Positions 1-55,544 of a stretch of DNA of 64,000 nt are shown here, one piece after another. Where the stretch lies: the IMG/VR virus record IMGVR_UViG_3300026189_001009, positions 59,632 to 123,631 of that record; one strand, given 5' to 3'. Source of the DNA: a virus. The translations under genes and the position numbers were made by a program. The notes beneath the pieces are model-generated. The model ran no database searches. It worked only from the letters and a program-made list of their open reading frames with translations, and had not been told where the DNA came from. Position 1 is the first letter of the stretch. Every line of letters starts with the position of its first letter.

Positions 1-2037
1 ACACATACTCAAAATCCTAAGAAAGATCCTCTATCATACACACAGAAGGTCAAATATGCAAAAGCAAGTTTTAATGGTATAAACATAGGTGATCCCAACG
101 TAAAGACCCTTATACAGGCGTTACAGAAGCTGGAATCACTAGGTTTTGCACATATTATCATGGTTGCAGGCTCGGATAGACAAGCTCAATTTGAGGAGTT
201 TTTACCCAAATATAACGGCAAAGATTACAAATTTGACACTATAAAAGTGGTAAGTTCCGGTGAAAGAGACCCAGATTCAGAGGGTGTTGAAGGTATGTCA
301 GCCAGCAAAATGAGAACTCATGCACAGAACAATGACTTTGATAGCTTCAAAGACGGTGTATTAGATCCTAGCATTGCAAAAGATATGTTTAATGATGTAA
401 GAGCAGGCATGGGGCTAACAGAATATGGTGGTATGGGGTTTGCAACAGTTACTCCAAAGAGACATACAATTACACGTAAGGTTAAACCAGAAGATAAAGT
501 AGATACTAGATCAATGCAACAAAAAATTGCAGACAGAAGAAAAGAATTACAGAAAAAATATAGCAGTGAACCACGTGACTGGAAAAGTATGAAATGGGTC
601 GAAGGTGTAAAAAAAGAAATAGATGAAGCAATATCAGACTTACCTCTTGTATATGTTGATATGGACGGTGTAATTGCTGACTTCTTTTCAGCATTAGCAA
701 AATTTAGAGGTGTAGATCATTGGAAAGACGGTGGTGATGATAGTGTACAAGATTCAATTAAAGCAATTGCAGGTACAAATTTCTTTTCAACACTACCAGT
801 ATTTCCAACAGCAAAGCAATTAATTACAATTGTGACAGCATTTACAGGTGGAGCATGGAATATTAATAGCTCTCCTTTAAGAAACGATCATGAGAATTCT
901 AAAAAACATAAACTTGATTGGTTAAAAGATAATGGCTTTTCTCCTAACGAAATTATTATTACAGGAAGAAAAGAAAGTTATGCAAACAGAACAGGTAAAC
1001 CTAATATACTAATCGATGACAAACCAAGCAACATCGAAAGATGGACAGCTAAAAATGGTATTGGTATTAGATACCAAGCTAACAAAGATTCGTTATCAAA
1101 AGTTAGTAATGCATTTAATATAATCAAACAATATATGCAAAGCAATGATGCATGGACACCTGAATTGATACAAAAAGTTAATACAGCAATAGCTACTGGT
1201 AAAATAAATGAAGGTGAACTAATACCGTTTCCTGAAAACTCGTTAGTAATAGATGTAGATAGTAAAAGTGACTTTTATGAACTAACAAAAGACATATCAG
1301 ATCTGAGTCAAGCAGATGCAAACAAATATGGCACTAAAGGTAAAGCTGATGTAGTTATTACTTTTCAAAGTCCAGAAGTCAAAGACATGGTAGCAAAACG
1401 TATTAAAAAATACACAGGTATGAAATCAAAAGACGCGACAACAAATAATCTTTATCACTATAATAGTAGCAAAAAGAAAAAGAAAAAAGTTAATGAGCAT
1501 GGTGGCAGAGTAGTAAAAGGAATCAATACAACACCAGACGTAGGTGTTGATGCAATTAAAAAACAATCAGGTAAACTAGGATTTAAAGTCAGTAATGATG
1601 GTGTACCACCAAAACTTAGAGAAGACGAAAAGTTTAAAAACCAAGATGGCCAGATGAGTTTCATTGGTTCTAATCCAGGAACAAAAAAATGGAACAAAGC
1701 AAAGAAAACATCAGAACCAGGAACAGATGATTGGTTTAAAACTTGGAGAACATTATCTTATCTAACCAAAGGTAGAAAAAATCATTATATGTTACCTATC
1801 AAAGAAAAACTAGAAGTACTATTAAAGGAATATTATAAAATGAAAATAAACGAAGTGGAACAAAAGTTAAAACCGATAACTGAAGCTGAGTTTGATCAGT
1901 TAGCTGAAAAACAAGATGCTTGTTATCATAAAGTAAAATCAAGATATAAAGTTTGGCCTAGTGCGTATGCCTCTGGTGCCTTAGTAAAATGCAGAAAAGT
2001 CGGTGCAAAGAATTGGGGTAATAAGAGTAAAAAGTAA
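1..2037 (+). CDS. Multidomain putative virion-internal polyprotein (5' partial): cytidylyltransferase-like domain, HAD/NT5C-type nucleotidase, small Cys-containing C-terminal domain
   Basis: Frame is open from base 1 (THTQNPKKDPLSY...), so the track start at 160 is internal. VAGSDR...GMSASKMR resembles T4-like phage nucleotidyltransferases; DMDGVIADF and LIDD are HAD motifs. Confidence 0.75.
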   Translation, partial: THTQNPKKDPLSYTQKVKYAKASFNGINIGDPNVKTLIQALQKLESLGFAHIIMVAGSDRQAQFEEFLPKYNGKDYKFDTIKVVSSGERDPDSEGVEGMSASKMRTHAQNNDFDSFKDGVLDPSIAKDMFNDVRAGMGLTEYGGMGFATVTPKRHTITRKVKPEDKVDTRSMQQKIADRRKELQKKYSSEPRDWKSMKWVEGVKKEIDEAISDLPLVYVDMDGVIADFFSALAKFRGVDHWKDGGDDSVQDSIKAIAGTNFFSTLPVFPTAKQLITIVTAFTGGAWNINSSPLRNDHENSKKHKLDWLKDNGFSPNEIIITGRKESYANRTGKPNILIDDKPSNIERWTAKNGIGIRYQANKDSLSKVSNAFNIIKQYMQSNDAWTPELIQKVNTAIATGKINEGELIPFPENSLVIDVDSKSDFYELTKDISDLSQADANKYGTKGKADVVITFQSPEVKDMVAKRIKKYTGMKSKDATTNNLYHYNSSKKKKKKVNEHGGRVVKGINTTPDVGVDAIKKQSGKLGFKVSNDGVPPKLREDEKFKNQDGQMSFIGSNPGTKKWNKAKKTSEPGTDDWFKTWRTLSYLTKGRKNHYMLPIKEKLEVLLKEYYKMKINEVEQKLKPITEAEFDQLAEKQDACYHKVKSRYKVWPSAYASGALVKCRKVGAKNWGNKSKK

Positions 2038-26369: not shown

Positions 26370-27810
26370 TAAGGACTATGCAGTATTCTTACCAGCAATA
26401 AGTTTTATATATGCAGACTTGTTATCAAAAAATGCAGAAGAGAAATGGGGTGATAGAATTCCAAAAGGTTTGCCTAAAGGTTTAGACAGTCTTAAATTTT
26501 TGTATGACGAGCAAGGTATGTTTAATTACAAGTGGGGATTGTATTCGGCAGGACACGCCAAGTTAGATATTGAAAAGTCAAAAGTACAAGAAGCATTTGT
26601 GCAAGACAGACCACGTGATAAAACAATTATATTAGGTGACAGTGGAGGCTTCCAAGTAGCAAAAGGTATTCTTAAGTTTGATTGGGATAACTTTTTTACA
26701 CCAGGACATAAAAACGATAAGATTAGATTAGATATCCTTAGATGGTTAGAACACACAGCAGACTGGAGTATGTGTTTAGATATTCCAAGTTTCTCTGTTA
26801 GTTTAGGTATTGGTGTTAATACTGTAAGAGATTGTATGGCATACACGGCATACAACAATGAATTTTTTGTTAACAACAGAGTTCCTGGAGCAACAAAGTT
26901 TTTAAATGTTATTCAAGGCAATGATATTCAATCAGCTGATGAATGGTTTGATACAATGGCACCATTTAGTGATACGAAAGTTTATGGTGACAGAGCATTT
27001 GAAGGTTGGGCTATGGGTGGTGAACATATGAGATGGTGGAAACTGATTTTACATAGAATGATTAAAATGAGAGATGGTGGACACTTTGATGGAAAAGATT
27101 GGATACATTTTTTAGGTACATCAGCATTAGAGCCGGCAGTTATGTTGACAGCAATTAAAAGACAGTTGACAAAAATTAATCCAAACTTAGAAGTTAGTTT
27201 TGATTCAGCATCTGCATTTGTATCAGTAGCAAGAGGACTTGTATATACTGAAAATGAATTTGATATGATGAGAAAGAAACCACGTTTTGGTTTTACAATG
27301 GATAAAGCCAAAGACAACAAGAAGTATGCAGGCAACATGGATAGAAAGTATGCTGATATGATTCCAGGTGAATATGAAACATTTGTAAACAATTCACCAG
27401 TTATGGATTGTTATAAAGAAGGCGATATATGTTGCAGAGGAGAAGATTACGAAAGTAAAACAAGTTGGGATAGTTTAAGTTATGTATTGTTAATGGCACA
27501 CAATGTATATCAACACATTGAAGCTGTACAGGAAGCAAACAGAAGAACAGATGCTAAAGATGTAAAAAGCATTCCGGAAGATGTTTTAGAGTTTGTTGAT
27601 TTAACAACAGAAGTATTTCAATCAGAAAAGCCAATGGAAGTGATTGAAAAGAACAGTTCATTATTGAATGGATTATCAAAAGCTAAATTTAGTGGAGCAC
27701 CAAGAACAACTACATTTGATTCAATTGTTGAGAGCGTACCACCGCTAGTAATGAAAGAGAAGAAAGAAGTCAAGGAAGTCAAGTCCAATTTCGAGAACTT
27801 GTTTGAGTGA
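26344..27810 (+). CDS. Divergent TGT/DpdA-like guanine transglycosylase
   Basis: GDSGGFQ, MCLDIP, NVIQG, GWAMGG, HFLG, SFDSAS; TTG start with GGAGG. Confidence 0.75.
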   Translation: MSINLTSTNKDYAVFLPAISFIYADLLSKNAEEKWGDRIPKGLPKGLDSLKFLYDEQGMFNYKWGLYSAGHAKLDIEKSKVQEAFVQDRPRDKTIILGDSGGFQVAKGILKFDWDNFFTPGHKNDKIRLDILRWLEHTADWSMCLDIPSFSVSLGIGVNTVRDCMAYTAYNNEFFVNNRVPGATKFLNVIQGNDIQSADEWFDTMAPFSDTKVYGDRAFEGWAMGGEHMRWWKLILHRMIKMRDGGHFDGKDWIHFLGTSALEPAVMLTAIKRQLTKINPNLEVSFDSASAFVSVARGLVYTENEFDMMRKKPRFGFTMDKAKDNKKYAGNMDRKYADMIPGEYETFVNNSPVMDCYKEGDICCRGEDYESKTSWDSLSYVLLMAHNVYQHIEAVQEANRRTDAKDVKSIPEDVLEFVDLTTEVFQSEKPMEVIEKNSSLLNGLSKAKFSGAPRTTTFDSIVESVPPLVMKEKKEVKEVKSNFENLFE

Positions 27811-29129
27811 TAAGTAATGCTATTATGCCTCGTTCATTTTGCCCTTTACCGTGGTCTCATTTAGGAGTTAAGAACAATGGCACACTTAGAATGTGTAGTC
27901 ATAGTCAATCTGCTGGTGTAGGTAACACAGTATTACATCAAAACAATAAACCATTAATGCTAGAAGATTTGAACTCTGTAGATGTGTTGAATTGTGAAAC
28001 ACTGAAACAAGTACGTAAAGATTTCATGAGTGGTAAGTTCCCAACACAATGCAATAGATGTAAAATGGAAAAAGAATCAGGTTACAGAAGTAGAGATGAA
28101 TGGGAAACTTTAAGATCAATAGCTGACGGTTTTACTCCAGCAATGGCATACGAAAATACTAATGATGATGGTACGTTAAAAGAATCAAAGATAATGAGCG
28201 TAGATTTACGTGTAGGTCATCAATGTAATTTAAGATGTGTCATGTGTTTTCCTGGTGAGTCAACTAAATGGTATAAAGACTATAAAGAAATAATGCAAGA
28301 AGACAAGTTTGGCGTTGACGGAAAAAAATATGATTTAGATATAAAGAATGCTGACTTTGATTGGTCAAGGTCTGAAGAAAAAGTTAATGGACTTGTTGAA
28401 GCTGGGCAGTATATTCAAAAAATAAAATTCGGAGGCGGTGAACCATTAATGATTAAACACTGTGCCGACCTAGTAGAAAAACTTGTTGAGTCAGGCAATG
28501 CTAAAAATATAGAATTAGAATACTCAGTTAACTTGACAGTGTTCCCTCCAAAGCTATGGGATTTATGGAAACACTTTAAACGGATTAAATTTTGTTGTAG
28601 TGTTGATGGTCTAGGAGAAGTAAACGAAGCAATTAGATATCCTACGAAATGGTCTGTGGTTAAAGAGAATTTAAAAATGTTAGACGATACACCAGATAAC
28701 TTTGAAGTCTTCACTAGTACTACAATTAATATGTTAACTTATGAGCACTGGGCAGATTTAATGCTATGGATTGATAGTCAGCACTTTAAAAAGATAAACA
28801 CCAATGCATATGACTTTAGTGCAACACATCCCGTATATAATCCAAAATATTTAAACATTGGTATAATGGACAAAGAAGATTTTGAGAAGATAACAAACAA
28901 CCTTTACAATAAAATTAATAAATCAAAATCAAATAAAAAGTCTACTATGTTGCGTAGGGTTGAATATTACAAAAACCTCTATGATAAAATAAGACCAACA
29001 GAAGGTACTGCTCTATATAAAAAACAGTTCGCAGATAGATTTGATAGATTTGCAAAAGCACAAAATCAAGACTGGGATAAAATATTTCCTTATGCATCTA
29101 GTCTAAAAAATAAATGGGCAACTCAATGA
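27807..29129 (+). CDS. Radical SAM protein with N-terminal twitch-like domain
   Basis: CPLPW...C, C..C, CNLRCVMC, GGEP. Confidence 0.85.
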   Translation: MISNAIMPRSFCPLPWSHLGVKNNGTLRMCSHSQSAGVGNTVLHQNNKPLMLEDLNSVDVLNCETLKQVRKDFMSGKFPTQCNRCKMEKESGYRSRDEWETLRSIADGFTPAMAYENTNDDGTLKESKIMSVDLRVGHQCNLRCVMCFPGESTKWYKDYKEIMQEDKFGVDGKKYDLDIKNADFDWSRSEEKVNGLVEAGQYIQKIKFGGGEPLMIKHCADLVEKLVESGNAKNIELEYSVNLTVFPPKLWDLWKHFKRIKFCCSVDGLGEVNEAIRYPTKWSVVKENLKMLDDTPDNFEVFTSTTINMLTYEHWADLMLWIDSQHFKKINTNAYDFSATHPVYNPKYLNIGIMDKEDFEKITNNLYNKINKSKSNKKSTMLRRVEYYKNLYDKIRPTEGTALYKKQFADRFDRFAKAQNQDWDKIFPYASSLKNKWATQ

Positions 29130-30019: not shown

Positions 30020-31207
30020 ATGAGAAAATTATTTTATATGGGCCTCGAGCCTTATGAAGGTCGCTACACTTTACAACTACAAGATTGGTCAGAACGAGTT
30101 TTTAAGAAACGTAATATTGATTATACTATTGTACCAGGTACTACAATAGATAATACAAAATCAATTAGTGTTGGTCAGGTATTAGATGCACATGGCAGAA
30201 GTTATTTTGGTATGAGTCAGATGATGAATCTAGTACAGATGATGCGTAATGGAGAAGTAACATCTGATGATGCAATCTTCTTTGAAGATATGTTTCAACC
30301 TGGTATGGAATCGTTACCATACATTTTAAATCAAGTAGATGAAAAGCATAGACCACAGATATATCTAAGATGTTTAGCACAGGCTATTGACCCAGATGAT
30401 TTTGTACACGTATGGGGTATGAGCAAATGGATGAGTTTGTATGAACAGTTATGTAACGAAATACCAAATGTAAACATATTAGCAACAAATGAAGAAATGG
30501 TTGCACACATGAGAATAGCAAATTGGAAAGCACCAATATATAATATTTCAGGTTTAAGTTTTGGTAAAGAAGAAGTATTAGAAAGAGTAAACAATAAACT
30601 AACACCATGGAGTGAAAGAGACGATAGAATAATATTTGCGGCTAGATGGGATCAAGAGAAACAGCCTGGCTTCTTTATGGATATTATTGAAGAAGTAAAA
30701 GCAACTGACTGGGGTAAGGACTATGAGTTTGCATTATGTATAGGAGGACCTCTAAGATCAAATGCACAAAAATATGTTGATAGAGCTTTAGAGTTAGAAC
30801 AAAAAGGTTTATTTAAAATTTATAAAGACTTACAGAAAAATGATTATTATAATTTACTGAACAAGTCTAAACTATTATTTAATTGTGCTTTACAAGACTG
30901 GGTATCAAACACAGTAAGTGAAGGCGATACATTAGGCTGTAACGTTTTATATCCAGCATACAGAAGTTTTCCAGAAACATTTGCTAATGATCCGGATAGG
31001 ATGTATGTACCGTGGAGTAAACAAGATGCAATTAATAAAATGAAACAACTAATAGATCAACCACACAGTAATCAAGGTAAGATATCTGATTGGACTAACG
31101 GAACAATTGATAGAATGATTGATATTATGTCTAAAGATTATAGAGCAAATAAATGGTTAAGATCAGGAAGGGACTATAGAGATTATGCCTCAGAGTCAAA
31201 GTACTAA
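30020..31207 (+). CDS. GT-B fold glycosyltransferase
   Basis: FAARWDQEKQP and QDWVSNTVSE (D/E-x7-E type). Confidence 0.7.
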   Translation: MRKLFYMGLEPYEGRYTLQLQDWSERVFKKRNIDYTIVPGTTIDNTKSISVGQVLDAHGRSYFGMSQMMNLVQMMRNGEVTSDDAIFFEDMFQPGMESLPYILNQVDEKHRPQIYLRCLAQAIDPDDFVHVWGMSKWMSLYEQLCNEIPNVNILATNEEMVAHMRIANWKAPIYNISGLSFGKEEVLERVNNKLTPWSERDDRIIFAARWDQEKQPGFFMDIIEEVKATDWGKDYEFALCIGGPLRSNAQKYVDRALELEQKGLFKIYKDLQKNDYYNLLNKSKLLFNCALQDWVSNTVSEGDTLGCNVLYPAYRSFPETFANDPDRMYVPWSKQDAINKMKQLIDQPHSNQGKISDWTNGTIDRMIDIMSKDYRANKWLRSGRDYRDYASESKY

Positions 31208-32219
31208 GATATTAGTAACAGGTGCAACAGGTTATGTTGGATCACACGTTCTAAAGTATCTTAATGAAAAAGGTTATCAGACTATCGGTATTGATAGAAA
31301 CGTTAGTGCAAGAGATTATATAACTAGACAACTACCAGATACAAAATTTTATGAAACAGGTCATGGCAAAGAATCTGATATACTAGATTCAATATTTCAA
31401 GAGCATAAGCCTCATGCAGTTTTACATTTATCAGCAAGTAGTTTAGTTGGTCCTAGTGTTACAGATCCACATAGATATTATGATAATAATGTTGGTGGAA
31501 CAATTAGTTTGCTTGGACTATGCGTGAAGTATGATGTTAAAAAGTTTGTGTTTACATCTACTAGTTCTGTATATGGCAATGGACATGAGCCACCAATCAA
31601 TGAAGATGTACAAAAACAACCATTAACAAGTTATGGTGGAAGTAAATTAATGATAGAATATATCTTAACTGATTACTATAAAGCATATGGTTTGAATAGT
31701 GTAACATTAAGATTATTCAATGTTTGTGGTGCAGATCCAGAACATACATTAGGTGAAGTTAAAAATGCTCCTACGCATTTGATTCCAAGTGTAATGGATA
31801 CAGCATTAGGCAGAAGAGATATATTTAAAATATTTGGTACAAAATATAATACAAGAGATGGCACAGCTATAAGAGATTATACTCATGTATGGGATGTTGC
31901 AAAAGCATTTGAAATGAGTATTGGATTTATGAATGATAATGAAGGCGATCATGTTTTTAATATTGGTGCATCAGGAGGACATAGTGTTCAAGAAGTAGTA
32001 ACAGCAATGGAAAAAGTATTAGATAAGAAAGTTCCAGTTGAGCATCATGCACCTAGAGAAGGTGATCCGGAATGTGTTATTGCAGATGTTTCCAAAGCTA
32101 AAGAACAGCTAGGTTGGGAACCTGAAAAATCAGATATTGACACTATATGCAAAGATACTGTACAATGGTTTGATACAGACATTTATAAAGCAATTGATAT
32201 CAAAAAGGTAATACAGTAA
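31185..32219 (+). CDS. galE: UDP-glucose 4-epimerase
   Basis: GATGYVG, YGGSK, DGTAIRDYTHV. Confidence 0.88.
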   Translation: MPQSQSTKILVTGATGYVGSHVLKYLNEKGYQTIGIDRNVSARDYITRQLPDTKFYETGHGKESDILDSIFQEHKPHAVLHLSASSLVGPSVTDPHRYYDNNVGGTISLLGLCVKYDVKKFVFTSTSSVYGNGHEPPINEDVQKQPLTSYGGSKLMIEYILTDYYKAYGLNSVTLRLFNVCGADPEHTLGEVKNAPTHLIPSVMDTALGRRDIFKIFGTKYNTRDGTAIRDYTHVWDVAKAFEMSIGFMNDNEGDHVFNIGASGGHSVQEVVTAMEKVLDKKVPVEHHAPREGDPECVIADVSKAKEQLGWEPEKSDIDTICKDTVQWFDTDIYKAIDIKKVIQ

Positions 32220-32243
32220 GTGTTAAGATTATTTAAAATTATA

Positions 32244-32272
32244 AAGGCAACCCTCTGCCTTAACATCGGGAG
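32244..32272 (+). promoter_or_regulatory. Candidate H-type pseudoknot leader occluding the folE SD
   Basis: AAGGCA-ACCCTC-TGCCTT-AACATC-GGGAG. Confidence 0.5.
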
Positions 32273-32278
32273 AAACAA

Positions 32279-32956
32279 ATGAGTGTAAGTGAAGAAATTA
32301 AAAAAAGATTACAAGAAGCAGGCAAAAGATTTCATAGCAATGATAATATATCTGAATATATTAAAGAAGGCGAACTAGATAAACTTCAAACTGAGGTACA
32401 AGAAAAGTTTTATGAAGTATTACAAACTTTAGTAATTGATACTGAAGGAGATCATAACACACAAGACACAGCAAGAAGAGTTGCTAAGATGTGGGTCAAA
32501 GAAACGTTTGGCGGTAGATATAAGCCAGCACCAAAGATTACGAGTTTTCCAAACATGGGATACAAAAGTATGTACACATCTGGTCCAATTAGTATTAGAT
32601 CAACTTGTGCTCACCACTTTCAGAACATTGTAGGTAAAGCATGGGTTGGTATCATTCCTAATGGTGAAGTAATTGGACTATCAAAGTTTAATAGAATTAT
32701 ACATCATATTGTGGAAAGACCACAGATACAAGAAGAGATGACAACACAGATTGCAGAAGCATTAGAAGAATATGCACACACTAAAAATATCGCGGTAGTC
32801 GTAAAAGCAGAACATCATTGTATGACTCATAGAGGTGTGCGTGAACATGAATCAGATATGACGACAGCGATAATGTTAGGACACTTTAAAGAAGATCCAG
32901 CAACAAGAGATGAGTTTTACAAGATATGTTTATCAATGAAAGGACACAGAAACTAA
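32279..32956 (+). CDS. folE: GTP cyclohydrolase I
   Basis: STCAHH, GLSK, QIQE, HHCMTHRG. Confidence 0.95.
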   Translation: MSVSEEIKKRLQEAGKRFHSNDNISEYIKEGELDKLQTEVQEKFYEVLQTLVIDTEGDHNTQDTARRVAKMWVKETFGGRYKPAPKITSFPNMGYKSMYTSGPISIRSTCAHHFQNIVGKAWVGIIPNGEVIGLSKFNRIIHHIVERPQIQEEMTTQIAEALEEYAHTKNIAVVVKAEHHCMTHRGVREHESDMTTAIMLGHFKEDPATRDEFYKICLSMKGHRN

Positions 32957-32957
32957 T

Positions 32958-33539
32958 ATGAATGAAGATTGGATTATACCAAAAGTCACATTTAGAACAA
33001 GAGAAGGTGACGAAGAAACAGAAGATGGTGGTTGTGCTATTGGTGGACATTGGGTAACAAAAACAACAGATGACTATTTTAAAGGAAAAAGAGTAGTACT
33101 GTTTAGTTTACCGGGTGCATTCACTCCTACTTGCTCATCACAACAACTACCAGGATTTGAAGACAACTTTGAAAAAATTAAAGCAATGGGAATAGATGAT
33201 ATCTATTGCTGTTCAGTAAATGACTCTTATGTAATGAATGCATGGGCTAAACACATGGGTATTAAACACGTTAAGATGATACCTGATGGTTCAGGTAACT
33301 TTACAAGATTTATGGGAATGCTAATTGGAAAGAACCATTTAGGATTTGGTATGCGTAGTTGGAGATATATGTGTGTCATCAATAATGGAGTTGTTGAAGC
33401 ATGGTGGGAAGAACCAGGTATTAACAATGACGGAGAAGATGATGATCCATATGAGGAATCAACACCGGAGAATATGATTCAGTATCTAGAGGCACATCAT
33501 GATGTGAAACCTTTAGTACTCACAGACGAAGTAGTATAA
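32958..33539 (+). CDS. Peroxiredoxin (Prx5 type)
   Basis: PGAFTPTCS, SVND, RSWRY. Confidence 0.92.
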   Translation: MNEDWIIPKVTFRTREGDEETEDGGCAIGGHWVTKTTDDYFKGKRVVLFSLPGAFTPTCSSQQLPGFEDNFEKIKAMGIDDIYCCSVNDSYVMNAWAKHMGIKHVKMIPDGSGNFTRFMGMLIGKNHLGFGMRSWRYMCVINNGVVEAWWEEPGINNDGEDDDPYEESTPENMIQYLEAHHDVKPLVLTDEVV

Positions 33540-33552
33540 ACAAGAGGGAAAA

Positions 33553-34668
33553 ATGAGAATCAAACCTGACGTTAAGTTGGACTATAAAGATGTTCTACTC
33601 GAACCAAAAAGATCTAAGCTAACAACTCGTAAAGAAGTTGTTATGGAAAGAGAATTTACTTTCCTTAATTCTGGGAAAACTTTTAAAGGCACTCCTATTA
33701 TGGCAAGTAATATGGATGGTGTTGGTACATTTGAAATGGCCAAAGTATTACAAAATCACAGAATGCTTACTATTATGAGAAAGCATTATACATTAGAAGA
33801 TTGGGATAATGCTGTAGGCGACGGATTAAGATTAAAGTATGTTTCAATCTGTACTGGAACTGGAAGAATTTGGTCTGAAGATGCACAAGATTATAGTGTA
33901 ATGAGAGAAGTATTGACAAAGTATCCTGACATTCCTTTTATTACAATTGATGTTGCTAATGGTTATCATCAAAACTTTGTTGAGTTTGTAGCAAAAGTCA
34001 GAGATGAATTTCCAGATAAGACTATCATTGCAGGTAACGTTATCACGCCTGAAATGACTGAAGAACTAATTATGCGTGGAGCAGACATTGTCAAATGTGG
34101 TATTGGTCCTGGATCGGTATGTACAACACGTTTAATGACTGGTGTAGGTGTACCACAGCTATCAGGAATTATTGAATGTGCCGATGCCGCTCATGGTGTA
34201 GGTGGACAAGTAGTTGCAGATGGTGGTTGCGTATATCCAGGAGACGTAGCAAAAGGTTTTTCAGCAGGTGCAGACTTTATTATGCTTGGAGGTATGTTAG
34301 CTGGACATGACGAAGGTGGTGGAAATGTTATTACTAAACATACTGCCAATGGTGATGCACATCAACTAGCTGACGGAACTTATGTTCCATACTTTGAGAA
34401 AAAACAGTTTATACAGTTCTACGGAATGAGTTCAGATGCCGCAATGGCTAAACATGGTAGTAGAAAAGATGGGTATAGAGGTGCTGAAGGTAAGTTAGTT
34501 TCTATTCCTTATAAAGGTCCTGTTGAAGATACAGTAACAGAGATCCTTGGAGGTATACGATCAGCTTGTACATACATAGGTGCAAGAAGAATTAAAGATA
34601 TGCCTAAGTGTACAACCTTTGTACAAGTTAATAATCAAGTCAATGAGGTGTTTAATAGATATGAGTAA
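33553..34668 (+). CDS. guaC: GMP reductase
   Basis: SNMDGVGTF, DVANG, GIGPGSVCTTR, YRGAEGK. Confidence 0.93.
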   Translation: MRIKPDVKLDYKDVLLEPKRSKLTTRKEVVMEREFTFLNSGKTFKGTPIMASNMDGVGTFEMAKVLQNHRMLTIMRKHYTLEDWDNAVGDGLRLKYVSICTGTGRIWSEDAQDYSVMREVLTKYPDIPFITIDVANGYHQNFVEFVAKVRDEFPDKTIIAGNVITPEMTEELIMRGADIVKCGIGPGSVCTTRLMTGVGVPQLSGIIECADAAHGVGGQVVADGGCVYPGDVAKGFSAGADFIMLGGMLAGHDEGGGNVITKHTANGDAHQLADGTYVPYFEKKQFIQFYGMSSDAAMAKHGSRKDGYRGAEGKLVSIPYKGPVEDTVTEILGGIRSACTYIGARRIKDMPKCTTFVQVNNQVNEVFNRYE

Positions 34669-35170
34669 TATAGAAAAGAAGTTTATTAACCATGCTACTG
34701 TGGCCGCGTATTTGGGAATCATTGTTGAGAAAATGAACAAAGATGCTTTTAAGCCCGACCTAGTAGTTGGGTTAAGCAGAGGTGGTTTACCACCAGGAGT
34801 TATGTTAAGTCATTTCTTAAACAAGCCGTTTGTACCTTTTCAAACTAGTTTAAGAGATCATCCAATGTGGAGTCTTAACACAGATCAACTTTCAAGTGTA
34901 GAAAAAGTTGTTGTTGTAGATGACATCTGTGATACCGGAGATACATTTAAAAAAATTAAACAAGAGCTATCAGAAAAGTTTCCAAGCCTTGATGTAAGGT
35001 TTGCTTGTTTGCATTATAACAAACCAAGCGGTTTTGATATTGATTGGTATGGGTCTCAAATAGATAAAGTCAATCAAGATGTATGGGTAGTGTATCCATG
35101 GGAAGATTGGTTTGATAGAGATGCAGTTGAAAATACTGTAGTTAATGACATCATAGGAAGAATAAAATGA
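34661..35170 (+). CDS. Type I (purine) phosphoribosyltransferase
   Basis: LSRGG, VVDDICDTGDT, WVVYPWE; start ATG 34661. Confidence 0.88.
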   Translation: MSNIEKKFINHATVAAYLGIIVEKMNKDAFKPDLVVGLSRGGLPPGVMLSHFLNKPFVPFQTSLRDHPMWSLNTDQLSSVEKVVVVDDICDTGDTFKKIKQELSEKFPSLDVRFACLHYNKPSGFDIDWYGSQIDKVNQDVWVVYPWEDWFDRDAVENTVVNDIIGRIK

Positions 35171-35619
35171 GTAGTGAAAAATGGCCTTGGGAAGTATACA
35201 GCGATGAAACAAAACATCATAACAAGTATCCAAAAGAATATAAAGACGCAGTTTGGTGGTTAAATTCAAAACCTATTAAAGATGAACCACAGTATTCTGT
35301 GTTTATGGACAAGTATCCAGCAGTCGAAGGACATAGATTATACATTCCAAAAACAAATGATGCACCCGGTATGATTGGATTATGTTTCCAAGAAGCATAT
35401 AGAGATGGAATGGAAATGATTAAAGAAGGAAAAATTGAAGGATTCAATATGGGAATGAACATAAATGAGGTAGCAGGACAGTCAATATTTTGGCCCCATG
35501 TACATTTTCTTCCAAGACACAAGAATGATATTAAAGGAAGAAATGCTGGAATGAGAATGGCAGTTCATACAATTGATCCATATAATCCAGATAATCAAAT
35601 TGACAAAAAATCTAAATAG
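35167..35619 (+). CDS. HIT-family nucleotide hydrolase
   Basis: DKYP..EGH, AGQS..WPHVHFLPR. Confidence 0.8.
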   Translation: MSSEKWPWEVYSDETKHHNKYPKEYKDAVWWLNSKPIKDEPQYSVFMDKYPAVEGHRLYIPKTNDAPGMIGLCFQEAYRDGMEMIKEGKIEGFNMGMNINEVAGQSIFWPHVHFLPRHKNDIKGRNAGMRMAVHTIDPYNPDNQIDKKSK

Positions 35620-35634
35620 TGTATAGTATATATT

Positions 35635-36531
35635 ATGGAAGAGAAGAAGTATTATTATTCGGAGATATTTCATAGTATTCAAGGAGAAGGACACTATACA
35701 GGTGTTCCGACAGCTTGGATAAGATTCTTCTTATGTAATTTACAATGTAATGGATTTGGACAAATAGATCCAACAACACCAGAAACATATGAATTACCAT
35801 TTGAAGACTTTGATATATCAACTATAAAAAGAGTAGAAGACTTGCCTGTATGGGAAAAAGGTTGTGATAGTTCTTATACTTGGGCAAAAAAGTTTAAAGG
35901 TTTAATGGGGCATGAGACTCCATCAACATTAGCAAACAAAATTGTAGACATAATGAAAAATGAAAGTAATCCTGAAGGATTATTTCTACATCCTATTACA
36001 AAACAAAGACAACACTTATGTATAACAGGTGGTGAACCATTAATGGCAACAGGACAATTTGCAACTGTAGGAATATATGAAGAACTTGAAAGACAAGGTA
36101 ATTTGCCAGAGTCAATGACATTTGAAACTAACGGTACACAAAAAATTAGACAACCATTTATTGATTGGGTAAACAGAATAGATACAGAAATATTCTTTAG
36201 TGTAAGTCCTAAATTGTTTACAGTTTCAGGAGAGACTCCGGAAAAAGCTATTAAACCTGAGGTAGTAGCAGAATATAGAAAACTTTCTAGTAAAGGACAG
36301 TTGAAGTTTGTGGTAGGTCCAAAAGATAGAGAGTGGGATGAAATGGAATCCGTAATCAAACAGTTTAAAGAAGCAGGTGTTGATTGGCCCATATGGGTTA
36401 TGCCAACAGGTGCAAGAGAAGAAGAACAAACAGTAGGTGCAGGTGCAGTGGCCGAAAAAGCATTTAAAAGAGGCTACAACGTAGCGGCTAGAGTTCATGT
36501 ATACCTATTTGGTAACGCAATAGGAACGTAA
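35635..36531 (+). CDS. queE: 7-carboxy-7-deazaguanine synthase-like radical SAM
   Basis: EIFHSIQGEG, CNLQC...GCDS with insertion, TGGEP, ETNG, SVSPK; TTGACA at 35600. Confidence 0.85.
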   Translation: MEEKKYYYSEIFHSIQGEGHYTGVPTAWIRFFLCNLQCNGFGQIDPTTPETYELPFEDFDISTIKRVEDLPVWEKGCDSSYTWAKKFKGLMGHETPSTLANKIVDIMKNESNPEGLFLHPITKQRQHLCITGGEPLMATGQFATVGIYEELERQGNLPESMTFETNGTQKIRQPFIDWVNRIDTEIFFSVSPKLFTVSGETPEKAIKPEVVAEYRKLSSKGQLKFVVGPKDREWDEMESVIKQFKEAGVDWPIWVMPTGAREEEQTVGAGAVAEKAFKRGYNVAARVHVYLFGNAIGT

Positions 36532-55094: not shown

Positions 55095-55544
55095 ATGAAA
55101 AAATACATTTGGGTAACATTTAGAAAAGAAGGACTTCACAAGTATCCAGCCGCTTTAGATGATCCTAAACTAGCAACGGGCGATGAGTATGATGTAAGTT
55201 TCTTAGGTTACGTACACAGACATATATTTCATTTCAAAGTTTTTATTGAAGTATTTCATGATGATAGAGACATTGAATTCATTCAGTTTAAAAGATGGCT
55301 TGAAAATTTATATAAAGACGGAACAATGAAACTTGATTATAAGTCATGTGAAATGATGGCAGAAGAATTAAATGGAGTAATACAACAACAGTATCCAGGT
55401 AGAAGTACTATATTAGAAGTTTCTGAAGATGGCGAGAATGGTTGTACAATTATGTTTCCAGCTAAAGACAAAAGCAAAAGCGACTTTACAACGTATGAAG
55501 AAATGGTTTTAGATACAAACACATCTAGCTCGGGTGTTCAATAA
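55095..55544 (+). CDS. queD: QueD/6-pyruvoyl-tetrahydropterin synthase-like T-fold protein
   Basis: EGLH, HRH, IEF, SCEMMAE, EVSEDGENG. Confidence 0.7.
   Translation: MKKYIWVTFRKEGLHKYPAALDDPKLATGDEYDVSFLGYVHRHIFHFKVFIEVFHDDRDIEFIQFKRWLENLYKDGTMKLDYKSCEMMAEELNGVIQQQYPGRSTILEVSEDGENGCTIMFPAKDKSKSDFTTYEEMVLDTNTSSSGVQ

Follow-up and report, generated by a model that had tools for sequence, protein, structure and literature searches.

The folE gene (GTP cyclohydrolase I) in a 64,000-nt stretch of marine phage DNA, positions 59,632 to 123,631 of the IMG/VR record IMGVR_UViG_3300026189_001009, is preceded by a leader that can fold into a small pseudoknot over the ribosome-binding site. This whole stretch, at its full length of 64,000 nt, is called the window, and position numbers without a locus name are window coordinates. 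Comparison of related leaders identifies the element as a real, widespread and uncatalogued RNA pseudoknot, present in hundreds of uncultured phages, which is conserved with covariation upstream of homologous folE genes and is positioned exclusively before folE. The original prediction, made from the letters of the window, had staked the structure on its recurrence before other folE genes, and in an alignment of leaders across related phages it does recur. The leader is very probably a functional cis-regulatory RNA; that it is a small-molecule riboswitch, working as a ligand-stabilised translational OFF switch, is a candidate function to which we would give even odds on the comparative evidence.

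The leader lies in an AT-rich spacer of 59 nt (32220-32278) that follows the stop codon (32217-32219) of an NAD-epimerase gene, and the hairpin, linker and GGGAG had been described exactly as we found them. The parts are as follows.

32244..32249, plus strand: AAGGCA, 5′ strand of stem P1; the 4-bp core has GGCA at 32246-32249, and A-U pairs at 32244-32245 extend the stem to 6 bp
32250..32255, plus strand: hexaloop ACCCUC, with A32250 as loop L1 and C32251-C32253 as the 5′ strand of helix P2
U32254 and the conserved C32255, plus strand: loop L2, within the hexaloop
32256..32261, plus strand: UGCCUU, 3′ strand of P1, with the core UGCC at 32256-32259
32262..32267, plus strand: linker L3, AACAUC, of which AAC and UC are conserved and the A at 32265 is an extra base
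32268..32272, plus strand: GGGAG; the 3′ strand of P2 (G32268-G32270) overlaps the Shine-Dalgarno (SD) sequence GGAG, with 6 nt to the ATG
32273-32278, plus strand: spacer AAACAA between GGGAG and the ATG at 32279
32279..32956, plus strand: folE, the proposed regulated gene (PF01227, E 5.6e-48; NF006824, 179 bits; TIGR00063)

The UU at 32260-32261 either pairs with 32244-32245 or serves as linker, and the 18-nt hairpin sequence occurs a single time in the window. Taken alone, the 81-nt leader has a minimum free energy of -9.3 kcal/mol with a z-score of 0.27, and 117 of 200 shuffled sequences fold at least as well. Because the leader folds no better than its shuffles, one sequence proves nothing, and the significance of the structure comes from conservation and covariation in relatives. 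Placed among them by sequence, the window is an ordinary family member that carries the rarer C:G form of P2.

In its general form the motif consists of a stem of 4-7 bp, the loop A-Y-C-C-H-C, a linker ending in AAC(A)UC, GGRG and a start codon 5-10 nt further on. The first sample comprised the 80 viral contigs whose FolE is nearest to that of the window (74-87% identity). Part of them carry the same element with differing stem sequences, and at many other of these loci folE abuts the upstream gene, has an N-terminal extension and is without leader. A covariance model, R1, was built from an alignment of 108 distinct instances (alignment A1) and run over the window, the 80 loci and two loci of the window's own record (590 kb, both strands). 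It returned 20 strong matches of 35-51 bits, namely the window and 19 of the 80 loci, all directly upstream of folE, and nothing else in the 590 kb scored above 12 bits.

A pattern scan of IMG/VR, in which the stem was left free, gave at least 120 stretches, of which the first 80 were inspected. Seventy of these 80 have the hairpin and 62 of the 70 directly precede folE, although the FolE proteins concerned are only 37-77% identical to that of the window. As for the others among the 70, folE was recognised after correction of the start codon in three, an open reading frame (ORF) of about 130 aa without known family lies between motif and folE in three (L124:548-937, L132:1892-2281 and L156:1479-1877, no Pfam family), and two run off the contig end; the ten matches of the 80 that have no stem were rejected as chance. 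When all scans were pooled, 223 distinct viral instances had sufficient flanking DNA, and folE starts within 700 nt downstream in 221 of them. The two exceptions are L156, where the intervening ORF pushes folE farther away, and one spurious match.

The same association was seen in a second FolE clade, which was sampled solely on protein similarity; there the canonical motif was found in 72 of the 78 loci with upstream DNA (80 fetched), the remaining six being three variants and three loci without the motif. Each of 24 motif-bearing phage records (76-328 kb) contains exactly one strong R1 match, as does the window's own 123.6-kb record, and R1 found none in six records whose folE has no leader. 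Upstream genes vary between loci and the distance from motif to folE start is constant, with 5-10 nt separating GGAG from the start codon in 217 of 221 instances. Two side observations belong here. At L072:2827-3669 the folE ORF is 280 aa long, with an N-terminal extension of about 55 residues before the region that aligns with other FolE proteins. At L470 (about 2000-2031, minus strand) and L487:4406-4460 there is a motif-like hairpin and linker ending in GGAU or GGAA, not GGAG.

The stem is supported by covariation in two alignments. RNAalifold predicted the 4-bp core of P1 unaided, and AU, CG, UA and GC types occur among its four pairs in A1 (columns 5-8 with 15-18), three of which have no unpaired cell and all of which have double changes. 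The P1 covariation score in A1 was 0.453, while shuffles gave 0.121 and sliding of the partners no more than 0.061. A1 had been filtered for at least three pairs, yet all 62 folE-linked pattern matches already had at least three. In the motif-independent alignment A2, which was fitted to the R1 model and so to a model that favours the structure, 99.1% of P1 cells were paired versus 20-50% with partners slid, and double changes were again present in four of four pairs.

The unpaired bases are conserved as well. The loop follows the consensus A-Y-C-C-(A/U/C)-C, with A, U or C at position 5, and in A2 the loop A, the last loop C, the linker AAC and UC and the GG are nearly fixed. Both the last loop C and the A of L1 are present in 108 of 108 A1 rows, where the search pattern fixed them; in A2 the former is present in every printed distinct row except L608, and the latter in every printed row with an aligned loop at that place, L608 being gapped there. 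The extra linker A (32265 in the window, A1 column 28) accompanies an A-U closing pair of P1 (columns 8/15; 32249/32256 in the window) in 38 of 38 cases and is absent with a C-G or G-C closing pair in 70 of 70. This tracking of the closing pair by the linker suggests a tertiary contact between the linker and the top of P1. Parsimony on the FolE tree of 273 tips counts 57 changes between the two linker forms, which are interspersed there; this points to frequent swapping or to recombination of leaders.

For the contact between loop and SD, the original prediction had offered two alternatives, CCC:GGG and CUC:GAG. The first (C32251-C32253 with G32270-G32268) is supported; the second is not conserved, as 75 of 108 instances have A as the middle base. 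A1 was unable to test P2, since both search patterns had fixed concordant combinations; in two additional scans any base was allowed at loop position 2 and directly after GG. In the pool of loci from the concordance-fixed and the free-position scans, U occurs with A in 95 type-A and 109 type-B contexts (about 204), C occurs with G in three contexts, which were found with the positions free, and C occurs with A in no real leader. Three odd combinations turned out to be chance matches inside GC-rich coding DNA. On a tree of 273 distinct FolE proteins the C:G state arises three times, and L326 provides a fourth stem background with C:G. The double change from U:A to C:G links loop position 2 with the third base of GGR, and on this covariation P2 is a YCC:GGR helix, represented in the window by the three C:G pairs given above.

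Taken together, the conserved parts form a compact H-type pseudoknot in which a P1 hairpin of 4-6 bp is followed by a single A (L1) and by P2 with its three YCC:GGR pairs, while two loop bases, the last of them the conserved C, lie at the P1/P2 junction and the linker AAC(A)UC runs back along P1. When the knot is absent, the SD would be free and folE would be translated; when it forms, the first SD bases would be buried and initiation would fall. In nested folds the SD is mostly free, with a mean unpaired probability of 0.74 (0.83 in the window). Since three pairs appear too weak alone, we infer that a small molecule between P1 and P2 acts as stabiliser; it would be stacked between the two helices and read by the junction C, as in preQ1-I riboswitches. 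The ligand would most likely be formed in the steps after FolE and would be a heterocycle presenting a guanine-like face, either a 7-deazaguanine such as 7-carboxy-7-deazaguanine (CDG), preQ0 or preQ1, or a reduced pterin, and such a ligand would provide end-product feedback on the first step of the pathway. A bolder reading, to which we would give a probability of roughly 0.4, is a new phage-confined riboswitch class sensing a 7-deazaguanine or pterin intermediate through what would be the smallest natural aptamer known (about 25-30 nt from P1 start to P2 end), and shutting off translation of folE as the entry step of a phage nucleic-acid modification pathway around a divergent enzyme of tRNA-guanine transglycosylase (TGT) fold.

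The leader could instead be a translational operator to which a phage protein, either FolE itself in an autogenous manner or another enzyme of the cluster, binds at loop and linker and so blocks the SD. T4 gp43 (gene 43 hairpin) and gp32 (gene 32 pseudoknot) act at autogenous translational operators, and the element resembles operators of this type in that RNA structure in the leader lies beside the SD of one phage gene, and in the proposed control at translation. The gene content of the phage is T4-like, with clamp loader and exonuclease present, and this group is known for such operators. The strict linkage to folE, once per genome, the absence of the motif from the cellular genomes searched, and the conserved loop and linker sequence, as expected of a sequence-specific site, would all suit a protein. 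On the other hand, the unpaired bases remain constant while FolE diverges to 37-47% identity, and the pairing between loop and SD covaries, which a simple loop-binding operator does not need; the T4-type operators bind their own gene product, whereas here it is the loop-SD helix that covaries. The fold, furthermore, matches a known ligand-binding architecture, and no RNA-binding candidate gene was seen travelling with the motif, in neighbourhoods that were not searched systematically. On balance we consider a protein operator unlikely. PF10715, which stands for RegB-type cleavage at GGAG, was not found in five records in a search without positive control.

The position of the element within the transcript bears on a second possibility, that of a ligand-free element. 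Of 221 instances, 192 have a sigma-70-like promoter-like site no more than 80 nt upstream of the stem, and for 129 of these the -10 element ends 6-13 nt before it, so that the motif would make up nearly the whole 5′ untranslated region in those loci. A pseudoknot or 5′ hairpin at the very 5′ end of the predicted transcript, as in most loci, might constitutively lower or tune folE translation, protect the mRNA 5′ end, or respond to temperature or Mg2+. The modest P1 hairpin (mean -4.3 kcal/mol) would agree with this, and the start codon TTG, found in 94 of the 219 folE genes linked to the motif, hints at a need for low expression. Neither constitutive tuning nor end protection, however, would need about 12 conserved unpaired nucleotides or the coupled change of linker and closing pair, and a weaker SD would be a simpler route to the same result, which makes a ligand-free role improbable in our view.

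The closest known system is the type III preQ1-I riboswitch (E. coli/Shigella yhhQ leader; RF00522; PMC10622847, PMC11625349). In type III, according to PMC10622847, P1 is short, L1 is a single nucleotide, the loop is rich in pyrimidines, P2 includes the SD bases GGA and a specificity C precedes the P1 3′ strand, and four to five conserved adenines in L3 and a U in L1 are needed as well; the A-rich L3 of preQ1-I lines the minor groove of P1 and the L1 uridine contacts the ligand. The phage element shares with preQ1-I the H-type pseudoknot, with a P1 hairpin and a P2 between the loop and the SD-containing tail, and the conserved C as last base of the loop, adjoining the P1 3′ strand, whose role in reading a ligand is putative. 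With type III, as far as described there, it shares the very small size, the short P1, the single-nucleotide L1, the pyrimidine-rich loop, the GGA of the SD in P2 and control at the level of translation, here predicted. It differs in several respects from the same description: L3 is NNAAC(A)UC (7-8 nt), with two to three adenines and then GG instead of an A-rich tail; L1 is A and not U; the loop has 6 nt versus 9 nt in type III, as counted from the residue numbering in PMC10622847; L2 has 2 nt versus 3; and the phage element stands before folE, type III before yhhQ in Gammaproteobacteria.

The covariance model RF00522 did not match at E up to 10, nor did any other Rfam 15 family match at the motif up to that value (3 kb around the site, a 66-nt stretch and 14 other loci); matches to isrI, mir-142 and SNORD43 were located away from it and were rejected as chance. 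The misfit to the preQ1-I consensus, which had been noted from the loop, thus extends to the missing Rfam match, the A-rich tail and the L1 uridine, and because the last two are lacking we did not file the motif in the preQ1-I family. A very divergent member of that family, a 'type IV' binding preQ1 or preQ0, would be a special case of the riboswitch reading. The H-type topology, single-nucleotide L1, GGR of the SD in P2 and C before the P1 3′ strand are all shared, and folE is the first step towards preQ0 (PMC11625349). We nonetheless regard 'type IV' as quite doubtful, given that RF00522 is unmatched even on the 66-nt stretch, that L3 has no poly-A tract, L1 is A and L2 is one nucleotide shorter, and that QueC was not found and no search was made for QueF, so that these phages may not make preQ0 or preQ1.

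The THF-II riboswitch ('folE motif', Rhizobiales), described in PMC6800512 as a P1-bulge-P2 hairpin of 50-60 nt with the ribosome-binding site in the P1 3′ shoulder, is likewise located immediately upstream of folE. It is, as proposed for the phage element, a small aptamer with the ribosome-binding site within the structure and an expected OFF switch, and its ligand has a guanine-like pterin face. Its architecture is another one: the phage motif has a single hairpin of 4-7 bp with a 6-nt loop and holds the SD in a pseudoknot, whereas THF-II is described without pseudoknot, with other conserved nucleotides and in Rhizobiales, and no Rfam match to it was obtained here.

That the hairpin arose by chance, or terminates transcription of the epimerase gene and is irrelevant to folE, has next to no probability. 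The unexceptional single-sequence fold and the position of the hairpin 25 nt after the stop codon would agree with it, but the stem is followed by AACAUC and not by a U-tract as in an intrinsic terminator, terminator calling gave nothing on the plus strand, the genes upstream change from locus to locus without any change in the spacing between motif and folE start codon, and the strong covariation in the comparative data contradicts this reading.

Several observations weigh against the riboswitch reading. P2 has only three pairs, and its covariation rests on three to four events. The motif was not found in the cellular genomes searched, neither among the matches listed in the pattern scan nor in 302 sampled bacterial genomes (best 22 bits), and a riboswitch class found only in phages would be unusual. 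About 35 nt after the motif-like hairpins of L470 and L487 comes a class II ribonucleotide reductase gene with an SD of its own, and these copies are relics or else put the element to a different use. Three leaders are variants: in L625 the loop breaks P2, in L608 there is a different loop of 8 nt, and in L623 loop and linker are altered. Canonical QueC was not found in the window's own record or in one complete 328-kb relative, and a full-length match was missing in 29 of 30 records. Finally, the window has no good promoter just before the stem, the only good site being at 32137-32166, inside the end of the upstream gene; three promoter-like sites were found in this region versus 2.4 expected.

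The cellular and database searches gave the following results. In the pattern scan of cellular genome_contigs, all 80 inspected matches, among at least 120 listed, were chance matches in coding DNA. R1, run over 151 Alphaproteobacteria and 151 Bacteroidota, gave only three partial matches of 20-22 bits, at loci that were not inspected. Six named phage folE loci are without the motif (NCTB, P. putida phage SKa-4, Rhizobium RHph_I1_18, Sinorhizobium Phosso, Vibrio GR7B and Vibrio 2.275.O), and blastn with motif queries of 33-56 nt against 50,697 phage records gave chance matches only, at a query length for which sensitivity is low; a cultured carrier was found in neither of these two phage searches. 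We found no description of a phage folE leader pseudoknot in the literature, in which supplementary alignments of riboswitch papers might hold such sequences, and PMC7029224 reports that a riboswitch scanner found none in pelagimyophages.

The gene content around folE indicates that the enzyme very likely feeds a 7-deazaguanine-type modification. The original prediction had taken folE as the first deazaguanine step, and this is plausible, as a TGT-fold gene, a QueD-like gene and a QueE-like gene are present. An ORF of 488 aa at 26344-27810, 4.5 kb upstream of folE, has more than 6000 homologues. It has no Pfam or PHROG match; the 50 best PDB matches of its structural model (predicted local distance difference test, pLDDT, 79.6; predicted template modelling score, pTM, 0.82) are without exception tRNA-guanine transglycosylases, at E about 1e-6 and with template modelling (TM) scores of 0.31-0.56 normalised to the target. 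Judged from this model, the protein is probably a divergent DpdA-like base-exchange enzyme, and the negative Pfam search for TGT was a false negative, as the fold search showed. Of 30 phage records that bear folE, 27 contain the TGT-fold family, usually a few kb from folE and on the same strand, as read from the coordinates. A QueD/PTPS-like gene lies elsewhere in the own record, outside the window, and the gene at 55095 gave no PTPS match in Pfam at E up to 1. The ORF 19845-20603, with a weak QueC match, was rejected because it is an NAD synthase (NadE; PF02540, E 3e-46).

Two neighbouring features complete the region upstream of the leader.

31185-32219, plus strand: NAD-epimerase gene, the upstream neighbour, followed by the spacer and folE
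32137..32166, plus strand: sigma-70-like promoter candidate, uncertain; TTGACA-18-TACAAT, 11/12

Downstream of folE (32958-36531) there are genes for a peroxiredoxin, a genuine GMP reductase (NF003470, 502 bits), a purine phosphoribosyltransferase-like protein, a HIT hydrolase and a QueE-like radical SAM protein, the last of which matches QueE models only in its first ~30 residues. This gene set suggests that a modified base is handled at the nucleotide level. A radical SAM protein with a twitch domain (27807-29129; NF033640, 304 bits) is encoded between the TGT-fold gene and a glycosyltransferase/epimerase pair.

Should a ligand be confirmed, this would be the smallest aptamer of any natural riboswitch, and the class would be the first without known members outside viruses. 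Phages would then be shown to regulate their own DNA- or RNA-modification pathway by metabolite feedback, and the ligand would reveal the product of a widespread pathway of FolE, QueD-like, QueE-like and TGT-fold enzymes without canonical QueC, which is carried by phages abundant in the sea and in freshwater. At its short length the RNA lends itself to direct chemical synthesis and to structure determination, so the test is cheap.

RNA contigs X18 and X19 covered only coding parts of relatives, and no transcript start was visible in them. DNA contigs from the sequencing runs X4 and X8 that span the leader show no differences inside 32244-32278. In run X8, from seawater, the summed contig depth over 32244-32280 of the window was 472, compared to 19-36 in the flanks, and contigs of many other organisms match just the ~35 bases of the motif.

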